The notes: a model not told the origin generated them from the letters alone. Counted from the stretch's first letter, positions 7,284-63,675 are shown. The stretch: DNA of 64,000 nt from Vampirovibrionaceae bacterium NZW_1234 (GCA_041697335.1 JBGUGD010000009.1:8029-72028); one strand, 5' to 3'. Numbers and translations are program-made.

Positions 7284-7569
7284 TCTGGAGTTAAACAACG
7301 TCCATGCATGTCATTACTATTATTTATTCTGGCTTTTTGATAACCCAGGTTAAAACATCGAAATAGATGATGTTGATTTCAAAGTTTAGAGAATTACTTT
7401 CACTGGTGTTAGATCTTTAAGTCTTTCTTAAGGCGGGCAATTTTGGGTGATCTGATGTTTTTTTTATCATAGAGAGAAGTGACACAACCAAAACCAAGCC
7501 AGAAAAATAAGAGAAGCAAGAAAGAGAGCGAAATTAAGAGAGAAGAAAGCGAGAGAAGCGAAAGTCCCC

Positions 7570-7743
7570 ATGTCTGTGAATGTGTTTGCGAATCAAAATG
7601 CCAATCAGGCCGCAGTGTTTTCCATGCAACCCAAGAAGTTGCCCAGCCCAGATCTCACTCGCCTGCCTGAGATGAACCCGTTTGCTCAATCTATCGTCAG
7701 TGATCGGTTTGAGATGAGTTCAAATCTGGTGTTCAAGTCATAG
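7570..7743 (+). CDS. Small hypothetical protein (57 aa)
   Basis: Manual translation MSVNVFANQNANQAAVFSMQPKKLPSPDLTRLPEMNPFAQSIVSDRFEMSSNLVFKS*. Preceded by a purine-rich leader and followed by a terminator. Confidence 0.6.
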   Translation: MSVNVFANQNANQAAVFSMQPKKLPSPDLTRLPEMNPFAQSIVSDRFEMSSNLVFKS

Positions 7744-7826
7744 ATTTCCCCCGTTTCCTATCCTTCCCCCAACCATCCCCCAGTCCCTCCCCCTAGTTCA
7801 TCTACCTGACATCTCGAATGACGACT

Positions 7827-7861
7827 CAAGCACCCCGTCGCCAACGGGGTGCTTGCTGTTT
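7827..7861 (+). terminator. Intrinsic terminator
   Basis: 12-bp stem CAAGCACCCCGT/ACGGGGTGCTTG followed by CTGTTT. Confidence 0.7.
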
Positions 7862-7952
7862 GCCAAGGAGGGCGACCTCAGGGCTGACAATTTTCCCAGT
7901 TTTGGGCATACTGGAAGAACGACTGATTGGGCAATTGATTTTGCGGAGATCT

Positions 7953-9083
7953 ATGGGTTTTCAGTTTACATTGCAGGCAACGGATGGTCAGGCTCGTGCA
8001 GGGCAGTTTATAACCCCGCATGGGGCGATTGAGACGCCCGTGTTCATGCCAGTAGGAACACATTCGACGGTTAAAACCATTACGATGCAGCACTTGCGGG
8101 ACATGAATGCCCAAATTATCTTGTCCAACGCGTATCATCTCTATCTGCGTCCAGGTCATGAGCTGATTAGGAAAGCTGGAGGCCTGCATGGCTGGGGTGG
8201 TTGGCATAAACCGATTTTGACGGATTCCGGCGGATTTCAGGTGTTCAGCCTGGGTAAGTTTCGGAAAATAACCGACGACGGTGTGACCTTTAGAGATCCT
8301 ATTACCGGCCGGACACACTATATCAATCCCGAAATCTCCATGGAGATCCAGAATGCCCTGGGGGCTGACATTATTATGGCCTTCGATGAGTGTCCGCCTT
8401 ACCCCTCAACCCATGAGTATGCCAAAAAGTCGATGGATATGACCCATGCCTGGCTGGAACGATGCTTTGCAGCTCACCAGCGCAAAGACGAGCAAGCGTT
8501 ATTTCCCATTGTTCAAGGCTCGACCTTTGAGGATCTCCGATCCGCAAGTGCTGAGTTTGTGACCCAGTTTGATGCTCATGGATTTGCTATTGGCGGTGTC
8601 AGTGTAGGGGAATCCAAGGATTGGGTGGATAAGGTTGTTGAGTTTACGGCTCCACTGCTCCCTGTTGATAAGCCCCGATATTTAATGGGGGTCGGGACAC
8701 CGGAAGATCTCCTGGACTCCATTGCTCGCGGCATTGATATGTTTGATTGTGTGAATCCCACCCGAGTTGCTCGCCATGGTGCCTTCTTTAGAAGCACTGG
8801 GCGTCGGAACATTAAAAACGCCGAGTTTGAAGAAAATTTTGGTCCACTGGAAGAGGGTTGCCAGTGTTACACCTGTCAGCATCATCACATTGCCTATGTC
8901 CGTCATCTTATGAAGATTAAAGAAGCAAGTGGGGCGACACTTTTATCCATTCACAATATTCATTTTCTGATTGATCTGGTGGTTCAAGCGCGTCAGGCAA
9001 TTCTCGCCGGAACCTTCCATTCGTTTTACAATACCTATAGAGCCCGCCTGGAAATGCAACGCGAGGTAACGTTGGTTGAGTAG
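7953..9083 (+). CDS. tgt: tRNA-guanine transglycosylase
   Basis: TPVFMPVGT, LTDSGGFQVFSL, DECPP, PRYLMGVG, DMFDCV and the CxCxxC Zn site. ATG 7953 follows GGAG. Confidence 0.97.
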   Translation: MGFQFTLQATDGQARAGQFITPHGAIETPVFMPVGTHSTVKTITMQHLRDMNAQIILSNAYHLYLRPGHELIRKAGGLHGWGGWHKPILTDSGGFQVFSLGKFRKITDDGVTFRDPITGRTHYINPEISMEIQNALGADIIMAFDECPPYPSTHEYAKKSMDMTHAWLERCFAAHQRKDEQALFPIVQGSTFEDLRSASAEFVTQFDAHGFAIGGVSVGESKDWVDKVVEFTAPLLPVDKPRYLMGVGTPEDLLDSIARGIDMFDCVNPTRVARHGAFFRSTGRRNIKNAEFEENFGPLEEGCQCYTCQHHHIAYVRHLMKIKEASGATLLSIHNIHFLIDLVVQARQAILAGTFHSFYNTYRARLEMQREVTLVE

Positions 9084-9297
9084 TAGGCAGATTGGTCAGG
9101 AGCGCCGTCGTCGAGAGGGAGACCGCCGCAAATCCCCCCGTCCTGGGAAATTTGAACGGCGTAAGAATACCTGTGGCCATTGTGTTTTCTTTAAGCCGAA
9201 AACAACTGAAGTTGGTTTGTGCACAAAGCATATGACCGATATTCGAGCCGATGAGTATGCTTGTGTCTGGTTTGCAGCACGCCCGGTTGAAGAATAG
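9076..9297 (+). CDS. Small Arg-rich, 4-Cys metal-binding protein
   Basis: ERRRREGDRR...ERR N-terminus followed by CxxC-x12-C-x13-CxxF. Overlaps the tgt stop; TTG start after GAGG. Confidence 0.6.
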   Translation: MSSRQIGQERRRREGDRRKSPRPGKFERRKNTCGHCVFFKPKTTEVGLCTKHMTDIRADEYACVWFAARPVEE

Positions 9298-9424
9298 ACG
9301 CTTTACTCCCAGGTTTTCGATTCTGTTACAGCGTGTAAAGTTTTCAACCGGTCGTTGGATATTTGCTCTCGATTGTCCGAACCCATGGTGAAATCCGTTG
9401 TTTAGATGAGCGAGGACAACACAC

Positions 9425-9982
9425 TTGAATTATTTCGGAGCAAATCCTCAGCCCTCTTGGAGCACAGGTGGTTATGGAGGCAGCTATGATGCATATAATC
9501 GTCTGAGACCTCAGCAAGGTCTGGAGCCCTCCGGAAGTTATGGCCCTCCTATGGTGTCGCCGGATCCTCTGCCCTTTGCCCAGCAGATTGAACAACAACT
9601 TGCTATTGTCGACTTTTGCTTTCCTGGCTTTACTCCTTTGGACACACAGTTAAAAACTCTGGCGTATCAATCCTTTCAGTTCGAGCCTGAGTCGCCCCAG
9701 GATATGCAAATCCAATCCCAGATGATGGCCTTGACACAAGGCTTGCCGGAGTATCAAGAGCCGCTACGACTGACCTTTAATGCCCTTAAAAGAGCCAAAT
9801 TGGCGAATGTGACAGGTTCTCTCTACACGATTATGGCCAACCTGGACCCGAGCTCCCCAGCGAGTTCCGAAATTCAGAATCGTGTCGCACTCATCCAGCA
9901 GCTGGATCAATCATTGGCTTATGAGCAGCAGACAAGCGCGCAGAATATTATGCAAATGCGCATGCCTCCCTTCTACGCGTAA
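9425..9982 (+). CDS. Hypothetical protein with Gly/Tyr/Pro-rich N-terminus and Gln-rich helical body
   Basis: 185-aa ORF with TTG start after GAGGA, ending at a hairpin. Confidence 0.6.
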   Translation: MNYFGANPQPSWSTGGYGGSYDAYNRLRPQQGLEPSGSYGPPMVSPDPLPFAQQIEQQLAIVDFCFPGFTPLDTQLKTLAYQSFQFEPESPQDMQIQSQMMALTQGLPEYQEPLRLTFNALKRAKLANVTGSLYTIMANLDPSSPASSEIQNRVALIQQLDQSLAYEQQTSAQNIMQMRMPPFYA

Positions 9983-22381: not shown

Positions 22382-22876
22382 TTAAAACAGGCCACCGCGA
22401 GGGCCATTCCCTCTGCCGGAAAACAGCAGCAGGAAGATGAGTAATAACTTCTTCAAGTCAAAGGATTTCTTGGGCGCGGGTTCCGGGTTCGGGTCGGGCT
22501 CAGCAATGCCAAAGTCTTCGTTATCCACAAAACGCTTGGAATAGCGGCTGCCGGACCGTTCTGAAAACACTTGCAACTCTGAGGAAGGTGCATTGGGGAT
22601 ACTGGGACTGACAATGGTCAGCTTTCCATCACCGTCCTGATCTACTGTCCGATTACCGAAGTCCAGGGCGTTTGCAAAGTTGTTTAGCACAATGGCAAGG
22701 TTATCATCGTCCCGCGCACTGGCCATGGTTGCAGCTTGACGCAACTGAGCGGCAGTGACCTTAATGCCTCCGCCAACAGTAGGCGGGGTGTCTCCAAAGA
22801 TTTGTAGAACCTGGTCTTTGATTTGATCAACGGTGACTCGTGTAAATCCCCGATACTGGGGGACTGCCATAACCAT
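22382..22876 (-). CDS. Hypothetical protein with an EF-hand-like loop and C-terminal hydrophobic segment
   Basis: DQDGDGKLT (DxDxDG), PEPDPNPEP linker, KKLLLIFLLLF; GGAGAAGG upstream. Confidence 0.65.
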   Translation of the reverse strand: MVMAVPQYRGFTRVTVDQIKDQVLQIFGDTPPTVGGGIKVTAAQLRQAATMASARDDDNLAIVLNNFANALDFGNRTVDQDGDGKLTIVSPSIPNAPSSELQVFSERSGSRYSKRFVDNEDFGIAEPDPNPEPAPKKSFDLKKLLLIFLLLFSGRGNGPRGGLF

Positions 22877-23134
22877 ACTTCCTTCTCCGCAGCTTTAATT
22901 CATAAATAAATAAAAACACCATTGGTCTAGAAATTACCTCGCTCTCTAACATGATGTTGCCAAACGTTTAGGTGGGTTCTTCAGGGATATCATAAACGAG
23001 GGGATTATTAACGATGTCTTAATTCACGTTACAAATCTTCAACAAGAATTCCAATTCAAAAATCCATTGTTTTTATACAGACATAATTCTTGTGGGCACA
23101 TTGGCTAAGTACGGATAAAAGAAGGTAGACAGCT

Positions 23135-23305
23135 ATGATTGTTGAAAATTTGCCTGTCGCAGAAACATACTGCGACAAGACGGATGTATTGCGGAACGAA
23201 ATGCATTATTTGGCAGAGAGAAATGCTTTTTGTATTTCGTTTTCCAGCAAAGCTTTGTCGAATTTTATAACAACCCTAAAAACGAATAAGGCCTTATACA
23301 AGTAA
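23135..23305 (+). CDS. Possible small protein (56 aa)
   Basis: Manual translation MIVENLPVAETYCDKTDVLRNEMHYLAERN...; GAAGG upstream; CAA-N14-GTTTTTA motif 60 bp upstream. Confidence 0.3.
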   Translation: MIVENLPVAETYCDKTDVLRNEMHYLAERNAFCISFSSKALSNFITTLKTNKALYK

Positions 23306-33528: not shown

Positions 33529-35100
33529 ATGACATCATCGTCGGATCATACACAAATTCAGCTATCGCTCGGTCAGGGCCGCATATTTGTGGTCGATGAC
33601 GAGCCGATGGTGACGACCAGTATTTGCACCATGCTGTCACTGGAGGCGGACTACGATGTTGAAGGGTTCAACTCGCCCTTAAGTGCTCTGGAGGCTGTCA
33701 AAAAAGGCCCTGCTCCCGATATTGTCATCTCGGACTTTTTGATGCCTGAGATGGACGGCATCAGTTTTCTGCAAGAGGTTCGAAAGCTTTGCCCGCAATC
33801 CACCTTGATCCTCCTGACCGGCTATGCCGACAAGGAAAATGCCATTCAAGCCATCAACGAGGTTGGGATTTATCGCTACATCGAAAAGCCTTGGGATAAC
33901 GAGACATTAACCCTGGCAATTCGCAACGGGATTGAGCGAACACGCCTGTTGGTCCGACTGAACGAAAAAATCAGCGATCTGGAAAAAGCCCAGCACGATC
34001 TGCGCGAGTATAGCGAACATCTGGAAGAGCGGGTGACCGAGAAGACCCATGACCTGATGCTGGCGTTGGACAAGCTCAGAGCCGTGGTGGAAAACACTGG
34101 GGATGCCATTGTGACCTTGGATTGCGATGGTCACATTGTGGGCGTGAACCCGACCTTTGCCCGATGGACCCGGCGCTCGCCCGAATTTTTAGAGACCCGC
34201 TCCATTGCGGAATATCTGACCTTTCAGAACGGAACCACGCTGGCGGCATTGATAGCCTCCGGCGAGCAGTCGCAGTTGTTTGAAGGCAAGCTGGGAACGG
34301 TCTCTGTGGAGGTTAACTTATCGTTGCTGCCCGGAAATGAAGGTGTGGTCCTGATTTGCCGGGACATGACCAAACGAAAAGAGGCTGAACGGCTTCGGGA
34401 GGATTTTGTGTCCACCTTGACCCATGATTTGCGCACCCCGCTTCTGGCCGCCATTCAGACCATCGACTTTTTCCTGGACGGAACCTTGGGCGATACCTCG
34501 GAGCGGCAAAAGGACATGCTGACCATGATGAAGCAAAACAACCAGCAAATGCTGGAACTGGTCAATGTCTTGCTCGAAGTGTATCGCTATGAAGCCAGGC
34601 AGCAGAAGTTGCTCATGGGTGAATTCAGCTTGAATGAACTGATTGAAGGGGTTGTTTCCGAATTGCAACCCTTGGCCTTGAAAAAAGAACAACAGTTATC
34701 TTTTAATCCCGATTGGGAGCTTCCTACGGTGTTTGGGGATAAGCAAGCCATTCGCCGTGTCCTGGTGAATCTGACTGCCAATGCCATCAATTACACACCG
34801 GCACAAGGCCATATCCGTATCCATACCTCCCAGAATGAAGGTCGGGTTGTGGTCTCGGTAGAAGATAATGGTCGAGGCATTCCACCGAAGGACCTGGCGC
34901 AATTATTTGAACGCTTTGCCCAAGGGACCAGTCGGCATCGAACCACCGGAACGGGGTTGGGGCTTTATCTCAGCCGCCAGATCATGGAGGCCCATGGGGG
35001 GCGAATTTGGGCTCAAAGTGATGTGGGCAAAGGCAGTATTTTTTCGTTTGAACTGGGCAAGGCGGCCGAGGCCAAGCCCCAGCCGCTGGTATCAGAGTAA
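33529..35100 (+). CDS. Hybrid sensor kinase (REC-PAS-HisKA-HATPase)
   Basis: VVDDE, SDFLMP, KPW; H-box THDLRTPL; NLTANAINY; DNGRG; GTGLGL. Confidence 0.95.
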   Translation: MTSSSDHTQIQLSLGQGRIFVVDDEPMVTTSICTMLSLEADYDVEGFNSPLSALEAVKKGPAPDIVISDFLMPEMDGISFLQEVRKLCPQSTLILLTGYADKENAIQAINEVGIYRYIEKPWDNETLTLAIRNGIERTRLLVRLNEKISDLEKAQHDLREYSEHLEERVTEKTHDLMLALDKLRAVVENTGDAIVTLDCDGHIVGVNPTFARWTRRSPEFLETRSIAEYLTFQNGTTLAALIASGEQSQLFEGKLGTVSVEVNLSLLPGNEGVVLICRDMTKRKEAERLREDFVSTLTHDLRTPLLAAIQTIDFFLDGTLGDTSERQKDMLTMMKQNNQQMLELVNVLLEVYRYEARQQKLLMGEFSLNELIEGVVSELQPLALKKEQQLSFNPDWELPTVFGDKQAIRRVLVNLTANAINYTPAQGHIRIHTSQNEGRVVVSVEDNGRGIPPKDLAQLFERFAQGTSRHRTTGTGLGLYLSRQIMEAHGGRIWAQSDVGKGSIFSFELGKAAEAKPQPLVSE

Positions 35101-35105
35101 TTCGT

Positions 35106-35333: not shown

Positions 35334-35622
35334 ATGTTATGTCCTCCAATGATGCCTTACGTACGATGGCTTGAATACATCAAGCTATGAGTAAAAAAAC
35401 ATGATTTTTTCAGTTGATGCTAGGATTAAGCAAGTCTTAATGTTAGACCTTCAATGGCTGGAAACATTGAAATAGGCTGGTATACTCGTGTTTGTACCAG
35501 TGTCCCAATGGGAGTGTCTGCGGGTGTCAACACGACTTGGCCGATGTCACGTATAATGAAGAATGAATTGTGATTTTCTAAGTTCTGTAGTCTAAGTCCT
35601 GTCGATTAATGAGAGCGTATCC

Positions 35623-38493: not shown

Positions 38494-39078
38494 ATGAGTA
38501 GTTTTGATCGCCTTGAAGCGCGTTTTTGTGGGGTCGGTGGTCAAGGGATTGTTTTGGGCACCACCATCCTTGCCGATGCGGCCATTTTTCATGAAGGCAA
38601 ATACGCCGTTCAGAGTCCCACTTACGGCTCCCAGGTCCGGGGCGGCCCAACCAAGGTCGATTTGATCGTGGATACGAAAGAGATTCTGTATCCCAAGGCG
38701 ACGAACATCAATTTCTTTCTGGCCATTGCCCAGGTGTCTTTCAATCGGTATTTTTACGATATTGCCGAAGACAGCACCATTCTGGTGGATGAAAACCTGG
38801 TGGTAAATATTCCGGACGAGTGGATTAAAGGCACCAAGCGAAAGCTCTTCACGGTCCCGGTGATGGAGATGGCCAAGCAGGAGTTTAACAATAATATGCT
38901 GGCCAATATGATTTGCCTGGGTATCACTCAGGAAGTAACGCAGGTGGTCACCATGGAGCATTTGCTGCAGTCTGTTAAAAAGCTGGTGCCTTCCAAGCAT
39001 TACGAGAAAAATGTCGCGGCCCTGGAGATGGGTATCGAGCTGGCCAAGAACCGCAAACGCGAAGAGTTGGCGGTTTAG
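38494..39078 (+). CDS. 2-oxoacid:ferredoxin oxidoreductase gamma subunit
   Basis: GVGGQG, YGSQVRGG and NMICLG. Confidence 0.93.
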   Translation: MSSFDRLEARFCGVGGQGIVLGTTILADAAIFHEGKYAVQSPTYGSQVRGGPTKVDLIVDTKEILYPKATNINFFLAIAQVSFNRYFYDIAEDSTILVDENLVVNIPDEWIKGTKRKLFTVPVMEMAKQEFNNNMLANMICLGITQEVTQVVTMEHLLQSVKKLVPSKHYEKNVAALEMGIELAKNRKREELAV

Positions 39079-39102
39079 CCCTTCACAGTGATTTTCTACC
39101 AG

Positions 39103-39134
39103 AAAAGCCCTCTGATTTTTTCAGAGGGCTTTTT
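39103..39134. terminator. Bidirectional intrinsic terminator
   Basis: AAAAGCCCTCTGA/TCAGAGGGCTTTT between convergent genes. Confidence 0.85.
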
Positions 39135-39313
39135 GGTTCGAGAAATAAAAGATGAGGGAGTGGGGATATTTTCAGCAAGTAATTATAGAGTCAATGAGGA
39201 AGCAAAAACAAACCAATTGACTTTTTTACGATCCATTCATGTGCCTGGAATCATAACGAGCCAGGTTTTTTAGCAAACCTGAGGTTATTATGGCGCATGG
39301 GGTTTCGTGTCGA

Positions 39314-39925
39314 TTAAGCACCCATCCGAGCGTCACGAATGCCGCCCAGGAGCAAGCTGGCAAACAGTGCTTGCGGCAACTGGCTCAAAGGATTCGGACT
39401 GCTCATGGCTTGAGGGCTTTGAACAAATGTTGGTTGAACTTGATAGGCCGAGGTTCCCCATTGCATTGGACGAGGCTGCTGTTGTCCGGCAAGTTGGCCA
39501 AAGATTCCAGCTAAGCCGCCAAAGAGCATTTGCATGGTGCGGGGGTCTAATGCTGCCGCAGGCGGTTGTTGGCCCGTGGGATAGGACGGCTGCATCGGAT
39601 AGGATGGCTGCGTCGGATATGAAGGCTGTGTTGGATATGAAGGCTGGGCCGGGTAGGAGGGGTAACTTGGCTGGTGTTGGTGGTGCGGCTGCCAGGGTTT
39701 ATGCTGATGCTGCACCGGATAAAAAATCGGTTGTTGAATAATGAGTGTCGGTGGCACGGGGGCCGGAGCCGGAGCTGGAGGCGTATAGGTCGGCTGCTGC
39801 TGATAGGGTGGAATGACGACCGGAGGTTGTTGAACAACATAGGGTTGACCTCCGCCATAAGGATTAGCGCCACCTTGAGAAGGGTAACCTCCATAAGCTT
39901 GGGATGGGCTTGAGTTGCTAAACAT
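39314..39925 (-). CDS. Pro/Gln/Tyr-rich low-complexity protein
   Basis: 203 aa, GAGGAG RBS, QPSYP repeats with synonymous codon variation. Confidence 0.8.
   Translation of the reverse strand: MFSNSSPSQAYGGYPSQGGANPYGGGQPYVVQQPPVVIPPYQQQPTYTPPAPAPAPVPPTLIIQQPIFYPVQHQHKPWQPHHQHQPSYPSYPAQPSYPTQPSYPTQPSYPMQPSYPTGQQPPAAALDPRTMQMLFGGLAGIFGQLAGQQQPRPMQWGTSAYQVQPTFVQSPQAMSSPNPLSQLPQALFASLLLGGIRDARMGA
39575..39673 (-). repeat. Coding 18-bp tandem repeat (QPSYPx, about 5 copies)
   Basis: QPSYPS...QPSYPTQPSYPTQPSYPMQPSYPT in the translation. Confidence 0.85.
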
Positions 39926-40003
39926 TGCTGAAACTCCTCACATGTCTTCTCTCAACACATTACTATTCAATGTCGGGAACAGTAACTACTCTCTATATTT
40001 ATA

Positions 40004-40031
40004 TAAAAACAATCTTAAGAGATAATTGTGA
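40004..40031 (-). promoter_or_regulatory. Putative alternative-sigma promoter TCACAA-N15-GTTTTTA
   Basis: About 80 bp upstream of 39925; motif shared with five other loci. Confidence 0.6.
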
Positions 40032-40349
40032 TAGAGTGTTGCTATATGTAAATCTGAATTTGCTGAATTGTTTTTCGTTGAAAAGCTTGCTATAAGGCTT
40101 TTTATTGGAAATCTTATGAATCCGGAAAATGAAACAAAGCATAAAAATTGGCAGTGTTATGTAATTATTTCTGCATGGTCTGTAAAAAGCGACGAAACAC
40201 AGTATATGGTTTTCTACCAGAATTAACGCAAGAAAAGAAAAAACCCTCTCAGGTCATGAGCGGGTTGTTCAGTGTGTGATAATGTGTGTGGGGGATATGA
40301 AACGGTATGTTTGGTGTAAGAAAATCTATAAAATGATTCTAATCCTGAT

Positions 40350-42026
40350 CTAGTACTGCGGCGGTGGAGCCGGTGTCGGCGTCGGACTCGGTGAGGGTCC
40401 TGGCGTCGGCGATGGGCTTGGGGACGGCCCAGGGCTCGGCGTCGGGCTAGGACTCGGTGAGGGTCCTGGCGTCGGTGATGGGCTTGGAGACGGACCAGGG
40501 CTCGGTGAGGGTCCTGGCGTCGGTGATGGGCTTGGAGACGGGCCAGGGCTCGGCGAAGGTCCGGGTGCTGGTGTTGTTCCACCACCACCGCCACCACCGC
40601 TTACTGGGGCAGGCGCTGGAGATACGGGTGGGTTCACCGGTGCCGGAGCAGCTACGGGAGTCTCCGCTTCTGCTTCCGCTGCTTCTTTACGCTTACGGAT
40701 CAAGTCAATAATCACCAGGACGAGGGCAAACATGGCTCCAGAGTTTTGTTGTGGCGGCTTAGGCTGTGTACCTCCTGGTTTTGGAGCGCCTGGCTGCTGG
40801 CCTTTGATCTTCTCCAAAAGCATCCGGATGAGTTGCGGATCCAGCTGGGGTTGAACAGGGGCAGGCTGTGGCATAGGCTGAGGCATGCTTAAACCAGGTG
40901 GGATTTGACCTGATGGCCCGGGATTATAGGGAATATAAACGGGCTGGAATAAGACTTGTGGTTGCTGAATTGGCGGTTGTGTCGGGGCTGGCAATCCCAT
41001 GATCATGGGAGGTTGCTGACCCATACCAGGCATTCCTGGAAAACCGCCCATTGGTGGCTGTTGACCGAATCCTGGCATTGGGGGGAAACCGCCTGCCATG
41101 GGAGGTTGCTGGCCGAAGCCTGGAACCTGTGGAAATCCACCTAAGGCGGGTTGCTGACCAAATCCGGGAACTCCTGGGAATCCGCCACCCATCGGAGGCT
41201 GACCCATACCGGGCATACCTGGGAATCCACCACCCATTGGAGGCTGGCCCATGCCTGGGAATCCACCGCCCATCGGGGGCTGGCCCATGCCAGGGAATCC
41301 GCCACCCATCGGGGGTTGACCCATGCCAGGGAATCCACCGCCCATCGGGGGTTGACCCATGCCTGGGAATTCACCACCCATTGGAGGCTGGCCCATGCCA
41401 GGGAATCCGCCACCCATTGGAGGCTGGCCCATGCCAGGGAATCCACCGCCCATCGGGGGTTGACCCATGCCTGGGAATCCGCCACCCATCGGAGGCTGCT
41501 GACCTAGACCTGGGAATCCACCGCCCATCGGGGGCTGCTGACCTAGACCTGGGAATCCACCGCCCATCGGGGGCTGCTGACCCATGCCTGGGAATCCACC
41601 ACCCATCGGAGGCTGGCCCATACCTGGGAATCCGCCACCCATCATGGGAGGTTGCTGTTGTTGTGGTGGTGGGAAGAAACTACCGCTGCCCATAGGAGGT
41701 TGCTGCTGCATGGGCGGGAAGAAACTACCACTGCCCATACCCGGTTGCTGCATGCCTCCGAGGCCAAGACCGGACATGCTTGGGAAACCGCCACCAAAGA
41801 AGGTGGGATTCTCAAACGTTTGTAATGTGGTTGGTGCCTGGTAGTTGGTCCCGAAATCCGGGAGGTACTGCATCGCACCAGGACCATTATTTAAGGCAAT
41901 ATTTAAACCAATATTTAAATTCTGCTCATTCCCGTAACCTGACACATCACCATAAAAGGTACCCGTGTTCACCTGATTCATGTTTATGGGAGGGGAGAAA
42001 GAAATATTGTTGACGTAAGATCCCAT
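40350..42026 (-). CDS. Pro/Gly/Met/Gln-rich repeat protein with a hydrophobic segment and Ser-Pro tail
   Basis: 558 aa, AGGAG RBS. Repeats are conserved at protein level with wobble variation. Confidence 0.85.
40353..40565 (-). repeat. Coding ([10 protein letters not shown])n Ser-Pro repeat
   Basis: About 70 aa made almost entirely of P/S/T/G at the C-terminus. Confidence 0.85.
41000..41655 (-). repeat. Coding 36-39-bp tandem repeat G(Q)[11 protein letters not shown], about 13 near-perfect plus 3 degenerate units
   Basis: GGGAATCC(A/G)CC(A/G)CCCAT recurs every 36-39 bp on the + strand with no unique spacers. Confidence 0.92.
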
Positions 42027-42090
42027 GATCTACTCCTAACTCTCTTATCTTCTCTGTGTGACAACACAAGGTCTAACTCTCTTATGAATA

Positions 42091-42117
42091 TAAAAACAAT
42101 ATTTATGAGTCTTGTGA
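42091..42117 (-). promoter_or_regulatory. Putative alternative-sigma promoter TCACAA-N14-GTTTTTA
   Basis: About 65 bp upstream of 42026. Confidence 0.6.
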
Positions 42118-42223
42118 TATTTCGTAAACATTTATTACACATGGAGGCAGAACACGCACGGCGAAAAGCTTAGCGCTGATCGGTCATTGACTATGATCAA
42201 ACAGATGCGAGAGAAATCGCGAT

Positions 42224-43732
42224 TTAAACGTTCACGAAACGGGTTTGGGTTTGCCCTTGTAATGCTTTAAAGGGGCTGTTTTGAGCAGTCATTTGAAAGC
42301 TTCCCAACGGGGAGGGTTGAGGTTTTACAGGGGCTGGTTTTTTCATGTCGTTTTTGAATTTCTCGGGCACCGGGCCGCGAATACGAGTCAGGAACATAAA
42401 GGCCGTGCTGGCGACAAATGCACTGAGGGCAGCAAAACCGGTTAATGCAAAGGATCCGAGATAGCCAAGCCGCTGAACGAAGGGTAACTTGCTGACCAGC
42501 ATAAAGGTGGCAGCTGCGGGAATAATACCCAGATACGCCGGGGCAATCATTTCACGTGACGTCCCGCGCTCTTTCACCAGTTGACGCTGGTAGGGTTGCA
42601 GGAACTTGGCGTCAAAGGTGTTGGCCAACAGACCGTACATCAGGAAGACGCCGATGATGCTGATAGGCAGCTTCAACCAGAAGCCACTGCCTTCAAAGAC
42701 TTTGGCCAATTTCACCATCTTCAGTTTGCTGGCGCCCAACTCCTTGAATAAATTGGCTGTGGCGGGCGAAACCTGTTTTTCATGGCGAAACAGCGGAAAG
42801 ATGATGTGCTTGTTGACTTCCTGCACCAGTTGTTCCGGTGTGTAGTTGGGTCCCTTGAAGAACTTGCGGAGCCAGCCGATGGGATTGCGGGTAAATTTAT
42901 AGGAGTCGCCTTTAATGTAACGGACCAGTTGAACGTCGTTCATGGAAGCCAGTTTTTTAATGAAGGTGCTGTTCTTTGTGGCCGGATGTTTCGCCAGCAT
43001 GTTAAGGCGGCGGCGTAGGGATTGCAATGCGTTATCACTGGCTTCTTTCAATATTTTGGCACTATCTTGCTGGTTTTTTCCCTTGAGGGATTTCCGGACA
43101 TTGCTCATGACCTGACTTTCATCCAGCTTGTTGAACAGGCTGAAATACCGCTCTTGGCGCCCCAGGTGCTTTTTCAGCAACCTGGCTTCTTCCTTGGACA
43201 GATTCAAATGTTTATCAATGTACTGTGGGGTGTTCATGATCCGGCGCAGATGTTTGGCCAGATCCTGGGTTGCCGTGATTTCTTTTTTAATTTCCTTGTG
43301 CAGGGCGCGGTTCTTGGGAGAGTATTGCACTGCTTCTTTCAGCTTGGCTTGTAGCGCCGGGATGTCACTGGTTTCCAAAAGATCGGGAACCATATAGTAA
43401 CTGCGCGAACTGACAATACTCCCCATCATTTTGCCTCGCAGGCTCTTGGGGACTTCTTTCAGGCCAAGCTTGTCCAGTTCCAGGAATTTCATAAACTGGG
43501 GCATGACATAGATCTTTTCCGCCCAACGGTAAGTGCATTCCATGACATAGGCATTGGCCCAGGGCATAAACGTATCCCGCCACAGGTAGTCGATTTTCCG
43601 ATCGTTGGGGACGGCTTGGGGCATGCCGAAATCTTCGGACGACACCCGGGCAATGCCTCGGATATAGGAACCAAAGTTCCCCATCTGGGTCAGAATACGG
43701 CCAGCCATAACCGGGTTTACGAGGAAGTTCAT
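42224..43732 (-). CDS. Hypothetical Lys-rich multi-pass membrane protein
   Basis: 502 aa with three C-terminal hydrophobic segments; 4-bp ATGA overlap with the upstream gene. Confidence 0.75.
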   Translation of the reverse strand: MNFLVNPVMAGRILTQMGNFGSYIRGIARVSSEDFGMPQAVPNDRKIDYLWRDTFMPWANAYVMECTYRWAEKIYVMPQFMKFLELDKLGLKEVPKSLRGKMMGSIVSSRSYYMVPDLLETSDIPALQAKLKEAVQYSPKNRALHKEIKKEITATQDLAKHLRRIMNTPQYIDKHLNLSKEEARLLKKHLGRQERYFSLFNKLDESQVMSNVRKSLKGKNQQDSAKILKEASDNALQSLRRRLNMLAKHPATKNSTFIKKLASMNDVQLVRYIKGDSYKFTRNPIGWLRKFFKGPNYTPEQLVQEVNKHIIFPLFRHEKQVSPATANLFKELGASKLKMVKLAKVFEGSGFWLKLPISIIGVFLMYGLLANTFDAKFLQPYQRQLVKERGTSREMIAPAYLGIIPAAATFMLVSKLPFVQRLGYLGSFALTGFAALSAFVASTAFMFLTRIRGPVPEKFKNDMKKPAPVKPQPSPLGSFQMTAQNSPFKALQGQTQTRFVNV

Positions 43733-44862
43733 GCGTTAACCCTCCGCCCGGTTGGGACCGATTGAATGAGCGAATTCATACGCTTCTGGAAGCCCGTGGC
43801 ATCATCGTCATCATCACCGGTTTTGGGTTTGAGCTTGGTCTTGGGTACCAGGTGCTTATCCAGAGGGGCGATAAACATAAAGACCAGCTTTTGCAGGAAG
43901 ACGCCGACAACAACGGCCATCAGGAGTGCGGCAGCCATAACCGACATGATTTTGGTGGACGAGATCCGTTTGGAAATCTGCTCAATGCTATCGATTTTAC
44001 GAATCAAATTCTTTTGCCAACCTTTCTTTCGGGCAGCCTGGAGTAACTGATCCTCGGCACTGAGTCCGCCCGTCAACAGGCCGGTCAACTTCGAGGGATT
44101 CTTCCAGAAATACGTGATCCGATTCATCAAGCCTTGCGGTGCCGGATTGATTTTCGGGCGATTTTTATCGGTAAAGAGTTTATTGATGAGGGAATTTTTG
44201 TAGACAATCAGCTTGTTCTGTTCATTCACATCAATTTTGGACCATAAGGCTTTTTCGGCTGCTTTCGCCAGTTCAGCGGAACGTTTTGCCGGGTCTCCGC
44301 TTAGTTTAACGCCCAAGGGGCTCAGATTGATTCCGGCTTCTTGGGCGATGGCAAGATAATTGGCGGTGGGACGCATCGAGTTGACGGTGGTTAACAAGAA
44401 CTGCTTGGGGTGTTTCACGAAATACATCAGGCGGTACATGGGATTGTTCTTCATTCGAAGCAGTTCTGCCTGGGGCACAATAGTATTCACCGGGACACGG
44501 GGCTTCATAAACTGATTAAACCCGGGGTTAAAGCCGTATTTGTCGTGCTTACCGACCAGCGTTACACCCAGCATGCCAAGCCAGATGACGATGTTCCGGC
44601 CCCACGTTTCAAAGGGGTGCTGGCGGTACTTGATGGCCATAATGCCTTGAGGAATGTAGATGGTCCAGACCATCAGGCGGTTTGAAAAATCTTCGATGGA
44701 CATCCCGCCCACGTTCACATTGACGGGCTGGGGCAATTTCTGGAATAACCAGTCCGAAAGTCCTGCGGAGAAACGCGTATGAGTGGCTTGCTGTGGCTGT
44801 GGCCGAAGCGCATGTCCCCCTTTGGTGTTATTTCCCGGTAAGGTAATACCCCGTGTTAGCAT
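43729..44862 (-). CDS. Hypothetical membrane protein with an RFS-ending leader
   Basis: 377 aa with 2-3 hydrophobic segments. Confidence 0.75.
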   Translation of the reverse strand: MLTRGITLPGNNTKGGHALRPQPQQATHTRFSAGLSDWLFQKLPQPVNVNVGGMSIEDFSNRLMVWTIYIPQGIMAIKYRQHPFETWGRNIVIWLGMLGVTLVGKHDKYGFNPGFNQFMKPRVPVNTIVPQAELLRMKNNPMYRLMYFVKHPKQFLLTTVNSMRPTANYLAIAQEAGINLSPLGVKLSGDPAKRSAELAKAAEKALWSKIDVNEQNKLIVYKNSLINKLFTDKNRPKINPAPQGLMNRITYFWKNPSKLTGLLTGGLSAEDQLLQAARKKGWQKNLIRKIDSIEQISKRISSTKIMSVMAAALLMAVVVGVFLQKLVFMFIAPLDKHLVPKTKLKPKTGDDDDDATGFQKRMNSLIQSVPTGRRVNA

Positions 44863-44906
44863 AGAATAGCCTGTACTCTGTCAGTGTTATCTTGCTCTTA
44901 TACAGG

Positions 44907-44934
44907 TAAAAACAGAACAAAGAAAAAATTGTCC
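44907..44934 (-). promoter_or_regulatory. Putative alternative-sigma promoter GGACAA-N15-GTTTTTA
   Basis: About 45 bp upstream of 44862. Confidence 0.55.
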
Positions 44935-45022
44935 TGAACGGGGAGTATTATCCCAAGAAGGAAGGCTTTCCAAAAGTAAATTTCCGTAAAGTCCTTGTGC
45001 CCCAAGGGTATTGCCATGTTAA

Positions 45023-45066
45023 GCTGTTGCCATAAAACTGCCACATTGGCATTTTATGACAACAGC
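45023..45066. other. Long imperfect inverted repeat (terminator or operator)
   Basis: GCTGTTG-C-CATAAAA-C-TGCCA-cat-TGGCA-TTTTATG-A-CAACAGC. Confidence 0.55.
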
Positions 45067-45119
45067 ACCGTAAATCGGATGGGAGATAGGCACCTTGCCC
45101 AGAGGCGAATGGGGAAATC

Positions 45120-45395
45120 CTAGTTTCGTTGGGTTGGAATGTAATAGGTTTTGGAACGAGTTTGCGCCAATTCGGCGTTGACCATATCGGAAATCAACCC
45201 CAGGCTTTTGATAAATGTCGTGGACGTTGCAACCACCACCAGGATAAAGGACAGAAAAGCCAGATCCGTTGGCGGATGAAAACCCAGGGAAAAGGGATTC
45301 ACATGAATGAAGGTCATGGCAATGTAGGTATAAAAGAAAATAATAAATGTGCCGTAGGTAATGTCCAAGACCAGACTAATGAGTTTCGGAATCAC
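45120..45395 (-). CDS. Small two-TM membrane protein
   Basis: GTG start after CAGGAGG; two hydrophobic helices. Confidence 0.65.
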   Translation of the reverse strand: MIPKLISLVLDITYGTFIIFFYTYIAMTFIHVNPFSLGFHPPTDLAFLSFILVVVATSTTFIKSLGLISDMVNAELAQTRSKTYYIPTQRN

Positions 45396-45500
45396 AAGCA
45401 GCCTCCTGAAAACAGATCGCTATCCTCGAACAACGCATCAAGAAACGCCAGGTACATCCATGTACCGACAAGTATAGCTTTGGGACTGAAGAACAACCTT

Positions 45501-46993: not shown

Positions 46994-46996
46994 TCA

Positions 46997-52964: not shown

Positions 52965-53771
52965 CTAGGATTCCATATCCTCGTATATTTTCCGAAAGTC
53001 GGCTTCGTTGCAGCCAAAGGCCTTGGCTAGATCTTGGCCGATTTTATTGATGCGCGAGCTGGGATGGCCCGTTAATGTCAGAATAGTGAAGCTCAGATCC
53101 TTTTGGAGCTGATAGGATAAGTCTTTAAACAACTTGGCCTCCCGCATTTTCAAAAGCAGATTACTGCCGTTTTTCGCCCAACTGTGTGCAAAGCGAACCA
53201 TCGGGGACTGGTTCTTTTGGGGAATGTTCTCAAGCAGGACATCCGACAAGGTCGCCATGGTTTTGGCCACTTTGTAAGGGCTGGCGTTGGTCGGTATTTG
53301 GCCAAGGGCGGCATCGACCTGTTCGGTTTGGCCGGTTTGGCGCCCGATATATTTGACGAAACGGGTCATGATCTCGGCCATCTTGACGTTGCCGGGGGCC
53401 AGGGCTTTTTCATAGAATGCGGGTTTGGGGAGTAATTTTTGCTTCAGTCTCTGTAGGAACGAATGGGATTTGTAGGCCCACAGCATATGACCGGCAATTT
53501 GAATCGGGAGTGCCAAAAAGCCGGTACCCAGGGTCACCAGGCCCAACACGCTTCCAATGACGACGTGTCCCGAAATGGAAAACACCAGCGGGTGGGTCAA
53601 CATGCTTTTGATGCCGTTACCCAGCCACCGAAAAAACGAGGGCCGCTCCTGGGTCTGCTTGGATTCCGGGTTTGCCGAAAACTGCAGCGATGGGCGCCCG
53701 GTGGACACGGCTTTTTGAGATGCCGTCCGATGGGTAAGGGCTGTGAAGGGGGCTTGTGGGGAAATGTGCAT
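52965..53771 (-). CDS. Hypothetical membrane protein with a QFS-ending leader
   Basis: ATG 53771 follows GAGGA; hydrophobic hairpin (ISGHVVIGSVLGLVTLGTGFLALPIQI). Confidence 0.7.
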   Translation of the reverse strand: MHISPQAPFTALTHRTASQKAVSTGRPSLQFSANPESKQTQERPSFFRWLGNGIKSMLTHPLVFSISGHVVIGSVLGLVTLGTGFLALPIQIAGHMLWAYKSHSFLQRLKQKLLPKPAFYEKALAPGNVKMAEIMTRFVKYIGRQTGQTEQVDAALGQIPTNASPYKVAKTMATLSDVLLENIPQKNQSPMVRFAHSWAKNGSNLLLKMREAKLFKDLSYQLQKDLSFTILTLTGHPSSRINKIGQDLAKAFGCNEADFRKIYEDMES

Positions 53772-53826
53772 CGTACCCAATCCTCGTTTAAGAACGCCGG
53801 TCCCTATGATGACCGCCATACCCAAC

Positions 53827-53854
53827 TAAAAACCGCCCAAAAAATTTCTTGCTA
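53827..53854 (-). promoter_or_regulatory. Putative alternative-sigma promoter TAGCAA-N15-GTTTTTA
   Basis: About 56 bp upstream of ATG 53771. Confidence 0.55.
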
Positions 53855-53894: not shown

Positions 53895-55409
53895 CTAATG
53901 GAAGGTTGAGTCGATATGAGCCACATGGTCGCTGCGTTTTTCGTAGGATTTGGGGAGCAGCTCACTGCGAAGGCCGAAGTGGATGCGGAATGTGGAGCCG
54001 AGGGTAGCTGCGCCCAGGTTTTGTTCACTGAAGTTATTGGTCCCGCCAATACGCCATGCCGAGTCCACAAAGCCTTGCAGGTATTGGGTCAACCGGCAGC
54101 GAAGGCCCAGGCCTGCGGACATCAGCGTGGTGTTGTGGTTGTTGACCACACGGCTGCCCCGGAGCCAGCCTTGGGCGATGTCATAGAACACCACGCCCTT
54201 GACCCGCTGGGCCAGCGTCGGGTTGACCTGGGCCAGAAAGGGAATGGGCCAGCGATATTCAATGTTGTACAGCTGGGCGCTATCGGAATACAGCATGCCT
54301 TCGGAGAACCCGCGTACGGCGTAGGCTCCGGCCAGGGGAAACATTTGGACCGGAATCAGGGCATCCGGCGAATATTGCCAGGAACCCCGCAGAATCAGAT
54401 TCGAGTCGTGGGGCAGGTTGAAGGTCCGGGTCATTTGCCCCCGAACCCGCCAGAACCGGGCGTTGCCTCCCAGCCATTGTTCTCCCAGGTAGGTCTGGGC
54501 ATAGGCATGGGTCAAACCCCATTTGTCGGGCTTGTTAAACCGCAGTCCTGCCGAAATAAAGCGAGGCTGGACATGAAGATTATTGACCCGAATTTCCCGG
54601 CCCGTGACTCCGATATCGGCGGTCCAGATGCGCTGCAAGTCCAGGGGTTGAATGTATCGAAACCCAATGCCGACCTGATCGGCGGAGCGGTCCTGCAGGG
54701 CCACCGGAAAATCCAGGCTGTTCCGGGTGTATTCTGCAAAACCACCGATGGTGCCGCCGCGACGGTTGATGGGAACGTCATAACTGCCGTTAAAGAAATA
54801 TGACCCCACAGAGCCAATGTACTGGAGGTTCAGTTTATCGCCGTACCCCAGCAAACTTTCGTGGGTCAGTTGGTGTCCCCAGCGGTATGTGCCAATTAGG
54901 GGGCGGCCCTGGTTGTCGAAGGTGGAGGTCAGTTGCCAGGGTTGGCGCTCGTACACGTCAACCATCAGGTTGGCCTTGTCCGGCGAGGAGCCTGGGGTAA
55001 TGCGTGCCCGCAGCTTGAAAGGATTCTGCTTGTTGATGCGAACGAGTTCCTGCTCCAGGTGTTGGGCGTCCATGGCTTTTGCGGGATCGTCAAGCAACGG
55101 CTTTAACTGACGCTGGATAACGGCGTCCCGATAATAGTGGTTCCCTTCAAACTGAATGGTTTCCAACTGCAACCGATCCGCTTGCTGGGGTATCGATTCG
55201 GGATCGGTCACCTCATTTCGGATGACGCCTTTCAAAAAAGGTTTTTCCGGGGAGGGTCCCAGGGGCTGGGCTTCCGGGGCCGGGGTGGTGAAGACGGGAT
55301 TATCCTGAAGGATGACCTTGGTCGGGGCCGCCAGGCTGGCGGGGGTAACACCGTAAAGGAAGCACAGGCTGGAAATCAGCAGAGCCATTCTGGTGGTCGG
55401 GGGAAACAT
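53895..55409 (-). CDS. ShlB/FhaC/HecB (TpsB, Omp85 superfamily) outer-membrane protein
   Basis: Signal peptide, POTRA (IQFEGN), FDNQG...G, LLGYGD, and the VRGF loop-6 motif. Confidence 0.9.
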   Translation of the reverse strand: MFPPTTRMALLISSLCFLYGVTPASLAAPTKVILQDNPVFTTPAPEAQPLGPSPEKPFLKGVIRNEVTDPESIPQQADRLQLETIQFEGNHYYRDAVIQRQLKPLLDDPAKAMDAQHLEQELVRINKQNPFKLRARITPGSSPDKANLMVDVYERQPWQLTSTFDNQGRPLIGTYRWGHQLTHESLLGYGDKLNLQYIGSVGSYFFNGSYDVPINRRGGTIGGFAEYTRNSLDFPVALQDRSADQVGIGFRYIQPLDLQRIWTADIGVTGREIRVNNLHVQPRFISAGLRFNKPDKWGLTHAYAQTYLGEQWLGGNARFWRVRGQMTRTFNLPHDSNLILRGSWQYSPDALIPVQMFPLAGAYAVRGFSEGMLYSDSAQLYNIEYRWPIPFLAQVNPTLAQRVKGVVFYDIAQGWLRGSRVVNNHNTTLMSAGLGLRCRLTQYLQGFVDSAWRIGGTNNFSEQNLGAATLGSTFRIHFGLRSELLPKSYEKRSDHVAHIDSTFH

Positions 55410-62930: not shown

Positions 62931-62947
62931 ACTATTACCCCATTCCC

Positions 62948-62985
62948 AACGAGGCCCCTGTTATCCGACAGGGGCCTCGTTCGTT
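62948..62985 (+). terminator. Intrinsic terminator after rocD
   Basis: 14-bp stem AACGAGGCCCCTGT/ACAGGGGCCTCGTT. Confidence 0.8.
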
Positions 62986-63053
62986 ACCAACGCCCTGAGC
63001 CGATCCGACCGACCCTGTCTTTACAGCGATCTCAGCATGGGGCATAATCATGC

Positions 63054-63079
63054 CTAGAGGTTCGGGCTAGAGGTTCGGG
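63054..63079 (+). repeat. Perfect 13-bp tandem duplication CTAGAGGTTCGGG x2
   Basis: Read directly; ends 15 bp upstream of the ORF at 63095. Confidence 0.85.
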
Positions 63080-63094
63080 AATGAGGATACGAAC

Positions 63095-63622
63095 GTGAGA
63101 TCCCCAGGGAGAGTGTCACGACATGGGTTCATGGCTATGGTGGGCCTCATCCTGCTGATGGTGCTCGTGTCACCCCACGCAACTGCGGAAGAAGTCTTCA
63201 TGGTCAAATTCCCCAAGACCTTTCCGGTCCCCACCCGAATGCTTGAAGCGGACGGCGTCGGTGGACGCTATGTGACCTCCAAAGATCGGGGCGCTCAAGT
63301 CTGCATGGTGGCATGGAACCGCATCCCCGATGCGGTTCTGAAGAAGAAGACAGCCGAGCAGATCCTGAACGACGCGGCCAAAGGTGGGGTGGGCCAATTC
63401 GAAAAGCTCCTGGAACGGGTGACCCCCATCTCCCTGCAGGGCCATCCCGGACGCTATATCGAACGCCAGAGCCTCCAAAACGGCATGGACGTCTTCTTCG
63501 TGGACAAGGTCATTTACAAAAAACCCCGCCTCTACCAGGTGGTCTACATTGGCACCCGCAAAGCCGACATGCGGGCTCCCGAGGTGCAGCACTTCCTCGA
63601 GTCATTCCGCTTCAAACCTTAA
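63095..63622 (+). CDS. Secreted PsbP/Mog1-like fold protein
   Basis: Signal peptide ending HATA; F.VKFP, ISLQGHPG, RLYQV and FLESFRF pattern. Confidence 0.6.
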   Translation: MRSPGRVSRHGFMAMVGLILLMVLVSPHATAEEVFMVKFPKTFPVPTRMLEADGVGGRYVTSKDRGAQVCMVAWNRIPDAVLKKKTAEQILNDAAKGGVGQFEKLLERVTPISLQGHPGRYIERQSLQNGMDVFFVDKVIYKKPRLYQVVYIGTRKADMRAPEVQHFLESFRFKP

Positions 63623-63647
63623 GGTTTCATTAGAATCCCAAAAACCG

Positions 63648-63675
63648 GGGCAAAAAATCCCGTCCGTGGTTTTTA
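63648..63675 (+). promoter_or_regulatory. Putative alternative-sigma promoter GGGCAA-N15-GTTTTTA
   Basis: About 46 bp upstream of 63721. Confidence 0.55.

Follow-up and report, generated by a model that had tools for sequence, protein, structure and literature searches.

A putative clade-specific promoter code, apparently split between two alternative sigma paralogs, before a large orphan regulon in Vampirovibrionia

Promoters of extracytoplasmic function (ECF) sigma factors carry a -35 element of the AAC type, and in plant-pathogenic Pseudomonas the ECF regulons of the HrpL type have a hrp box before effector genes. In Bacteroidetes, the sigma-A promoter has a -33/-7 consensus. For sigma-28, one source describes the fliC promoter of Pseudomonas aeruginosa as TCTAAAG at -36 to -30 and GCCGATAA at -15 to -8, the leading G-C of which corresponds to an extended -10, and gives -11A as the flipped base in both sigma-28 and sigma-70 (PMC12784957). 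On promoters or sigma specificity in the class Vampirovibrionia (Melainabacteria), full-text searches at listing and abstract level found nothing relevant. Here we analyse a stretch of 64,000 nt from Vampirovibrionaceae bacterium NZW_1234 (GCA_041697335.1 JBGUGD010000009.1:8029-72028), called the window at its full length, in which a first-pass annotation had noticed a bipartite motif, CAA-N14/15-GTTTTTA, ahead of orphan genes, and had proposed that it is a promoter for an ECF-like sigma factor. The reading we favour, with moderate confidence and from sequence comparisons, is that RNA polymerase carrying an alternative sigma of the sigma-70 family uses the motif as its core promoter, with two FliA-like paralogs as the most likely readers.

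The full motif can be written as GGCAATT-N14-(T)GTTTTTAT-N5-TA. Its layout is the one given for sigma-28 (FliA/WhiG) in that source, namely a 7-nt -35 element, 14 bases, and an 8-nt -10 element that opens with G, with a T-A near the 3' end (PMC12784957). When the motif is placed in the sigma-28 register, it has A-33, A-32, G-15, T-10 and A-9 in common with the fliC frame, and its conserved T-A step falls at about -2/-1 or -1/+1 (PMC12784957). The two differ in sequence, with GGCAATT and GTTTTTAT here against TCTAAAG and GCCGATAA as described there (PMC12784957), and the motif does not match the consensus TAAA(G)-N-GCCGATAA of sigma-28/FliA promoters.

To define the motif we used the whole genome (3.70 Mb in 41 contigs, 50% G+C). 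When CAA-Nk-GTTTTTA is counted for k from 8 to 23, a sharp peak appears at k=16 (88 copies), followed by k=14 (46), k=13 (32) and k=15 (31), over a background of about 20. The 88 copies share the conserved blocks GGCAAT(T), about 14 unconserved bases, TTGTTTTTAT(T/A), and a T-A at +13/+14 from the G; in place of GGCAATT, an alternative -35 block, TAGCAMAAA, also occurs. The first-pass annotation was thus right about a bipartite motif but not about its spacing, since GGCAATT-N14-GTTTTTAT, with CAA-N16, is the dominant form rather than CAA-N14/15. Some of the N14/N15 copies in the window belong to promoters with a spacer one base short of the norm, and in other N14/N15 copies the -35 block is CACAA, so that the second 'CAA' falls two bases closer.

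A two-block position weight matrix (PWM) was seeded from 47 copies of GCAA-N16-GTTTTTAT, and the reversed, uncomplemented genome, which has the same composition, served as control. The matrix finds 171 sites scoring at least 16 in the real genome and 16 in the control (the 47 seeds being counted among the 171), 109 against 2 at scores of at least 18, and 66 against 0 at scores of at least 20. It is scarcely credible, in view of these counts, that the motif merely reflects the composition of AT-rich intergenic DNA or is what remains of a dispersed repeat. The intergenic DNA is indeed AT-rich, and iterative re-estimation of the matrix at a fixed threshold drifted to T-runs and generic T-rich sequence, so that it was dropped and the seed matrix kept. 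Against such an origin stand, in addition to the reversed genome, the sharply peaked spacer length, the unconserved spacer sequence, which argues that the copies are not repeats, and the enrichment in all 40 sampled relatives of the order, where the controls are near zero.

The position and orientation of the sites are those of a promoter. Of the 171 sites, 144 lie outside called genes, although our home-made calls (3002 genes) make the genome 83% coding. At 89/171 sites the predicted start point has a co-directional gene start no more than 100 nt away, against 9/171 for mirrored sites. The predicted leader has a median length of 33 nt (interquartile range 16-65, n=105), the canonical offset being found in 105 of the 171 sites. 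A genome-wide scan, which the first-pass annotation had proposed as a check, therefore reveals a bias in both spacer length (the k=16 peak) and orientation. The upstream regions of tRNA genes carry instead the canonical TTGACA-N17-TAtAAT; a strict match to TTGACA-N16-18-TAnnnT within 150 nt upstream was found for 16/42 tRNAs, 34/596 random genes and 6/105 motif genes, and the best motif score ahead of any tRNA is 12.5. Because the tRNA genes use TTGACA/TATAAT promoters instead of the motif, an alternative-sigma promoter is indicated; as far as sequence can tell, the signal is genuine and separate from the housekeeping promoter.

That an activator or repressor binds the same blocks as its operator, over otherwise ordinary promoters, we consider improbable. 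A CTTAAG palindrome does lie 9-11 nt before the G at some class II sites (the classes are defined below), many of them in genomes of family f2, yet in this genome it occurs (at -9 or -11 from the G) in only 12/434 GTTTTTAT sites and is thus not a general part of the motif. A loose canonical promoter-like match is present within 150 nt at 36/105 motif genes, but this is close to the rate at random genes (166/596), and the strict matches are equally frequent in the two sets. The blocks are, moreover, asymmetric and strictly gene-oriented, and they lie at -35/-10 distances from the conserved T-A step. No conserved hexamer was found downstream of the motif in the aligned genomic copies, which indicates that the motif itself is the -35/-10 pair, and not an operator placed before another promoter.

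In the window, GTTTTTA occurs 17 times, against 8.3 ± 3.0 in dinucleotide-preserving shuffles, one of 100 of which reaches 17. CAA is found 14 or 15 nt before it in six copies (40004-, 42091-, 44907-, 53827-, 63669+ and 23069+), all in sense, with the last A at 79, 65, 45, 56, 46 and ~60 nt, respectively, from the proposed start codon. Genome-wide, the other spacers give ~14-34 CAA matches per 1159 GTTTTTA, so that about 0.6 CAA pairs would be expected among the 17 of the window, where six are observed. Near matches are present at 7457+, 22917- and 35400-, and all nine sites were recovered in sense toward the open reading frames (ORFs) to which they had been assigned, as was the ATAAGAG or ATAGAG directly after the motif at four of them (44913, 42097, 40010 and 7457). 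When the window was scored with a weight matrix built from the other genomic copies, just these nine sites reached a score of at least 13; those near 13 (23069, 35400, 44907) are individually less certain, because at scores of at least 14 the reversed genome still has 49 sites against 278 real ones. The sites and the ORFs behind them are the following (window coordinates):

7436..7471 (+), predicted promoter, class-I-like, PWM 21.8; GGCAATTTT, 17-bp hexamer spacing, TGTTTTTTTTAT; predicted +1 near 7471
7570-7743, ORF of 57 aa behind the 7436..7471 promoter, with a purine-rich leader of ~100 nt; without Pfam domain
22903..22938 (-), predicted promoter, class I, PWM 24.1; GGTAATTT ... TGTTTTTATTT; predicted +1 near 22903
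22382-22876, ORF of 164 aa, 27 nt after the predicted +1 at 22903; without Pfam domain
23050..23083 (+), weak promoter candidate, PWM 13.7, of which 13.3 from a class-II type -10 (TTGTTTTTATAC) and 0.4 from a poor -35
near 23135, possible small ORF behind the weak candidate 23050..23083 (+)
35386..35421 (-), weak promoter candidate, PWM 13.5; CTAGCATCAAC ... ATGTTTTTTTAC
34982-35326, ORF downstream of the weak candidate 35386..35421 (-); without Pfam domain
39996..40030 (-), predicted promoter, class II, PWM 19.5; TCACAAT ... CTTAAGATTGTTTTTATATAAATA; predicted +1 near 39996
39314-39925, ORF of 203 aa downstream of the 39996..40030 (-) promoter; without Pfam domain
42083..42116 (-), predicted promoter, class II, PWM 17.4; TCACAAGAC ... 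TTGTTTTTATATTCATA; predicted +1 near 42083; an exact match to CAMAA-N14-GTTTTTATA (contig C9:50117-50144)
40350-42026, low-complexity ORF of 558 aa downstream of the 42083..42116 (-) promoter; without Pfam domain
44899..44933 (-), weaker predicted promoter, PWM 13.0; GGACAATTTT ... CTGTTTTTACC
43729-44862 (377 aa) and 42224-43732 (502 aa), two-gene unit behind the 44899..44933 promoter; no Pfam domain above cut-off
53819..53853 (-), predicted promoter, PWM 18.8; CTAGCAAGAAA ... CGGTTTTTAGTT
52965-53771, ORF of 268 aa downstream of the 53819..53853 (-) promoter; without Pfam domain
63649..63683 (+), predicted promoter, PWM 25.2; GGGGCAAAAAA ... TGGTTTTTATTC; spacer one base under the norm; predicted +1 near 63683
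63721-63921, ORF of 66 aa, 38 nt after the predicted +1 at 63683; without Pfam domain

The weaker site at 44899..44933 has a counterpart in a relative (genome G004), in which the homologue of the 43729-44862 gene is preceded, at the equivalent place, by a site scoring 24.1. The predicted transcripts often open with purine-rich leaders (TAAGAGAG..., long GA runs), for example at 7471-7569 (+) in the window, and at many motif genes GTGTGTG or GAGAGAG stands just ahead of the start codon, which may be a lineage-specific translation-initiation signal.

The non-coding GTTTTTAT sites split into two classes according to the next base: the GTTTTTATT sites pair with aGGCAATTT (class I), and the GTTTTTATA sites pair with cTAGCAmAAA and a TATAtnnATA tail (class II). 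Among sites with CA at -19/-18, those with T at +8 have TT at -16/-15 in 30 cases and AA in none, and those with A at +8 have AA in 34 cases and TT in 3 (p = 5e-16 for the linkage). The mutual information reaches 0.3-0.5 bit over positions -17 to -14 and falls to nearly zero in the spacer. Since the spacers are unrelated, the linkage does not stem from copy ancestry. We also counted four exact patterns, in the order CAATT/ATT, CAATT/ATA, CAMAA/ATT and CAMAA/ATA, and found 28, 1, 0 and 31 in this genome and 592, 117, 17 and 144 in 40 relatives (controls 3, 4, 4 and 14; odds ratio 43). The linkage between the -35 and -10 blocks is present in each of the three families of the order, with 60/10/1/45 in f1, 98/36/6/19 in f2 and 434/71/10/80 in f3. 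Linked changes 22 bp apart are the pattern expected from two readers, and the candidate sigma described below has just two paralogous forms in the class; judged by this pattern, the two promoter classes would fit the two sigma paralogs. In the small f2 genomes (G005-G039), CAATT is often found with GTTTTTATA and with CTTAAGATT at the end of the spacer, next to the -10, a combination that is a putative third promoter flavour or an added operator.

The host was taken in the first-pass annotation to be a relative of Vampirovibrio, and this holds: the closest homologues of the tRNA-guanine transglycosylase encoded in the window, at 78-80% identity, are titled Vampirovibrionales or uncultured cyanobacterium, and homologues of the sigma factors discussed below are named Vampirovibrio or Melainabacteria. 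The distribution of the motif was followed in other genomes with the exact pattern GCAA-N16-GTTTTTAT and its reversed control, which gave the following counts:

Own genome: pattern 47, reversed control 0
40 other genomes of the order (three families, 5-65 copies each): pattern 1010, reversed control 34
76 genomes of other orders of the same class: pattern 705, reversed control 67
124 genomes of other classes of the phylum: pattern 224, reversed control 153

The motif is thus enriched in 40/40 sampled genomes of the order and also in a second order of the class (family f4), and the 124 genomes of other cyanobacterial classes are not enriched as a group. Within the class, three genomes of family f5 have no motif excess (2, 1 and 5 copies). 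Outside the class, some genomes of families f8 and f12 show a slight excess of the pattern (7 vs 0, 5 vs 0 and 5 vs 1) and also give the better of the 'weak' matches to the candidate sigma (E 1e-8 to 1e-11), so that these families may harbour a distant relative of the system.

The genome encodes at least ten proteins of the sigma-70 family, among which we searched for the reader of the motif:

Four group-1/2-like sigmas (one cut at a contig end)
C2, sigma-70-like protein of 719 aa
C10, canonical FliA/WhiG, above the subfamily cut-off
C28, SigF/SigB-type sigma
C22, ECF-type sigma of 224 aa, the only clear one
C16:18950-19630, FliA-like paralog 1, 226 aa, outside the window
C29:179872-180600, FliA-like paralog 2, 242 aa, outside the window

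The last two, here called the C16 and C29 sigmas, have FliA/WhiG as their best profile over the full length. The closest solved structure to a candidate sigma is Aquifex FliA (1rp3, E 2e-9), and FliA and WhiG are the closest overall. Close homologues of the C16 sigma (E 1e-50 to 1e-60, usually two per genome) are present in 73/73 f4 genomes and in 41/41 genomes of the order, and the three motif-poor f5 genomes have one divergent copy, with 35-37% identity. In other classes, the same search gave weak generic matches (E 1e-13 or worse) or none. In a large protein collection, the members of the C16 family are generically named ('sigma-70 family', occasionally 'FliA'), and those with a named organism usually come from Vampirovibrio, Vampirovibrionales or Melainabacteria.

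A second line of evidence comes from the sigma genes themselves. In this genome, a top-scoring site (28.7) stands 290 nt upstream of the C16 sigma gene; the two are separated by a 61-aa ORF that is conserved within the family only. At the C16-type loci of 30 genomes of the order, 19 have a sense site scoring at least 17.7 at 215-563 nt upstream, two have a weak site and nine have none, when about 0.5 sites would be expected from the site density; 16 of these 19 promoters are of class I. The C29-type paralog has no motif ahead of it in any of 21 genomes, and no site scoring at least 16 was found within ~1 kb upstream of the other nine located sigma genes, the nearest lying ~1.3 kb before the FliA gene. 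From these two lines of evidence, and from the sigma-28 layout of the blocks as a third, the readers of the motif are most likely the two paralogous, divergent FliA-like sigmas, which appear specific to the class Vampirovibrionia.

That the motif is an alternative-sigma promoter read by another of the sigmas, be it ECF (C22), SigF/SigB (C28), FliA/WhiG (C10) or a group-1/2-like protein including the 719-aa one (C2), is an unlikely but serious alternative. With at least ten sigma-70-family proteins encoded there is no shortage of candidates, GGCAAT loosely resembles the ECF -35 element GGAAC, and the co-distribution is compatible with a ubiquitous sigma whose specificity has shifted in Vampirovibrionia. 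We compared the phyletic pattern of one alternative, the SigF-like sigma, which is as common where the motif is not enriched (E ≤1e-30 in 192/201 genomes, motif-less ones included). Among ten sigma genes, however, only that of C16 has a site scoring at least 16 within ~1 kb upstream, and a single sigma leaves the two strictly linked -35/-10 classes unexplained. The group-1/2-like sigmas retain the canonical region 2.4 (STYATWWI...), with which they would be predicted to recognise -10 elements of the TATAAT type, and the flagellins, the expected targets of the canonical FliA, are without the motif. The part of the first-pass proposal that stood is the alternative-sigma promoter (171 vs 16 sites, and the contrast with tRNA genes), whereas the ECF-like assignment gave way, as the best match is FliA-like and the ECF sigma gene has no motif.

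On the reading favoured here, GGCAATT would be placed at about -36 to -30, followed by 14 non-conserved bases and by (T)GTTTTTAT at about -15 to -8. Transcription probably starts at the T-A step 6-7 nt after the -10, which would leave a median leader of 33 nt to the start codon. The genome contains ~150-300 such predicted promoters, mostly serving lineage-specific, low-complexity proteins rich in N, G, P and Q and without Sec-type leaders. Class I (GGCAATT...GTTTTTATT) and class II (TAGCAMAAA...GTTTTTATA) would each have their own sigma reader. With the C16-type gene behind a class-I promoter, this sigma would be autoregulated or would form the second step of a two-sigma cascade: in the first case the C16-type sigma would read class I, and thereby its own promoter, and its paralog class II; in the second, class I would be read by the paralog, which would turn on the C16-type sigma as the reader of class II. 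Directly observed are the motif, its placement and orientation, the bias of its targets, its occurrence across genomes, the covariation and the set of sigmas; from these we infer the start site, the pairing of sigmas with promoter classes and the biological role.

Several points weigh against this reading, besides the home-made gene calls used above. The C16 and C29 sigmas match the FliA/WhiG profiles end to end, yet far under the family cut-off (73.6 and 74.8 bits against NCBIfam FliA_WhiG TIGR02479, with a cut-off of 189.6); they are below every NCBIfam subfamily cut-off and pass only the general sigma-70 model TIGR02937, and a Pfam scan of both did not detect region 2. In the sigma-28 register the -11 position would be T, not the flipped A described for sigma-28 and sigma-70 (PMC12784957). 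If the lone invariant A is placed at -11 instead, the -35 block lies 2 nt farther upstream than usual. The two sigmas were assigned from co-distribution and from the promoter at one sigma gene, and related genomes are non-independent. All 12 sequencing runs found to contain window positions 38500-45500 are of DNA, none of RNA. In the second order (f4), none of the 11 sigma loci examined has a motif nearby, so that autoregulation is not class-wide. Flagellin genes (three in tandem) and a FlgL-like gene have no motif upstream, which shows that this is not a classical FliA regulon, and a separate canonical FliA/WhiG (C10) is also present. A scan for the FliA consensus TAAA-N14-16-CCGATA gave 40 matches against 40 in the reversed genome, so a canonical FliA regulon is not definable in this way. 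In its working the promoter/sigma pair resembles one of the sigma-28 type, yet it does not agree with the FliA family in score, consensus or targets, nor with ECF or housekeeping promoters. Two further points concern the regulated genes and are given with them below, namely the inflated contrast in Pfam content and the poor retention of the promoter at homologous loci.

None of the eight motif-driven window ORFs scanned has a Pfam domain above cut-off. Genome-wide, a domain was found in 9 of 40 ORFs of at least 110 aa behind top-scoring sites and in 23 of 30 randomly drawn called genes (Fisher p = 9e-6), a contrast that is somewhat inflated, as the random genes come from calls favouring typical codon usage. 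The nine positive proteins comprise XYPPX, collagen repeats, two papain-like C39/C70 proteases, an M20 peptidase, Inhibitor_I10, GMP synthase, a CHASE2 cyclase and an OmpR-type regulator. The regulon of lineage-specific orphans proposed at the outset is borne out by this contrast, but it is not purely orphan, in view of the GMP synthase, the M20 peptidase, the OmpR-type regulator and the CHASE2 cyclase. Typical FliA regulons are an order of magnitude smaller than this one, which is mostly orphans. Among the 93 downstream proteins of at least 100 aa, N (1.40x), G (1.32x), P (1.22x) and Q (1.16x) are over-represented, and C, H, L, I, V and E under-represented. The products of the motif genes have a lower local complexity than the genome (p = 1e-13), as the first-pass annotation had suggested; its further description of them as leader-bearing does not hold, since an N-terminal hydrophobic stretch is found in 4% of them against 16% genome-wide.

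The 377-aa protein of the window (43729-44862) illustrates how restricted these genes are: it has 4 homologues at E ≤1e-5 among 5.8 billion proteins, a six-frame search finds weaker relatives in 24/41 genomes of the order, and its nearest clusters in a protein atlas are Melainabacteria 'hypothetical protein' entries (scores 0.92-0.93). For a 581-aa protein behind a top site, the protein atlas gave nothing reliable (0.78). Among 13 loci of relatives that carry homologues of the 43729-44862 gene, one of them without upstream sequence, a site scoring at least 15 is found at only one, in the closest genome examined, which indicates that regulon membership changes fast. The motif genes of the window are dispersed among ordinary genes (LspA, pseudouridine synthase, FolD, MCP, ShlB-type transporter) and form no island.

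In these features the system resembles the HrpL regulons, in which one alternative-sigma promoter likewise marks scattered, fast-evolving, little-annotated genes without Sec signals, so that the motif is usable as a gene finder, and two motif genes encode papain-like C39/C70 (AvrRpt2-like) proteases. It differs from HrpL in having no ECF features, with a -35 core of GCAA, not AAC, and an ECF sigma gene without the motif. With the Bacteroidetes sigma-A promoter it shares a consensus that is limited to one large clade and is missed by standard -35/-10 scans; the difference is that the housekeeping promoter is here still TTGACA/TATAAT at the tRNAs, and that the new code belongs to additional sigmas.

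Some further observations were made on the genes behind the motif and on their neighbours. Two adjacent Inhibitor_I10 genes (marinostatin/microviridin-type) each stand behind their own motif (L114 1-462 and L122 1-534), and an ATP-grasp gene with an MvdD pre-ATP-grasp match (L149 1-930) lies ~7 kb away on the same contig; together they may form a microviridin-like peptide cluster under a motif promoter. Three motif genes are paralogous (L100 1-948, L104 1-699 and G000 C37:143692-144786), and the two of them scanned with Pfam match papain-like Peptidase_C39_2/C70 (AvrRpt2-like), which makes them candidate secreted proteases. In the window, a gene for an outer-membrane transporter of the ShlB/FhaC type (53895-55409, -) lies directly upstream, on the same strand, of the motif-driven orphan 52965-53771. 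The pair resembles two-partner secretion, but the orphan is short (268 aa) and without a match to a TpsA-type domain. ARAGORN calls a tRNA-His with anticodon 'atg' at 54144-54222 (-), within this transporter ORF; the call is probably false, and a normal tRNA-His is found elsewhere in the genome (C29:160174-160249). An RNase P RNA of bacterial class A (268 bits, full length) occupies window positions 5771-6111 (-), and the ORFs listed at 5826-6187 are therefore spurious. Among the other sigmas, the 719-aa sigma-70-like protein (L083, ~487-2646, +) has an N-terminal half of ~390 aa that precedes the detected sigma-70 domains, and long inserts between regions 2 and 4. The anti-phage MzaA sigma model is among the weaker NCBIfam matches of other sigmas in the genome, in a scan that did not include the 719-aa protein.

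The motif and both sigmas are also found in the second order, whose genomes measure 1.6-2.3 Mb, so that the programme is not confined to this lineage nor specific to its way of life. An attack or attachment phase, which the first-pass annotation had offered as an example in case the host is a Vampirovibrio-like predator, finds no support in these data. A bolder proposal, which we put forward as possible though doubtful as a whole, is that Vampirovibrionia evolved a private two-letter promoter code, in which two sigma-28-derived paralogs, each with its own -35/-10 pair (GGCAATT/GTTTTTATT and TAGCAMAAA/GTTTTTATA), would control several hundred leaderless, low-complexity, fast-evolving proteins. 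As the gene of one paralog lies behind a class-I promoter, the two may act as a cascade. The proteins would be possible substrates of a Sec-independent export route at prey or host contact, the route meant being a flagellar-type or type IV apparatus. If this were true, the motif could be used as it stands to find the effectors of this uncultured class.

What lies before this large orphan regulon would best be described as a clade-specific alternative-sigma code that is apparently split between two paralogs. Vampirovibrionia are almost wholly uncultured, and a class-wide code would provide a sequence-only handle on a programme of ~5-10% of the genes. The motif also flags which 'hypothetical' ORFs, very small ones included, are probably real genes. 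It leads to a concrete biochemical prediction, of two sigmas with two matched -35/-10 pairs, and the strict long-range linkage between the -35 and -10 blocks would represent an unusually clean natural case of duplicated sigmas dividing promoter space.

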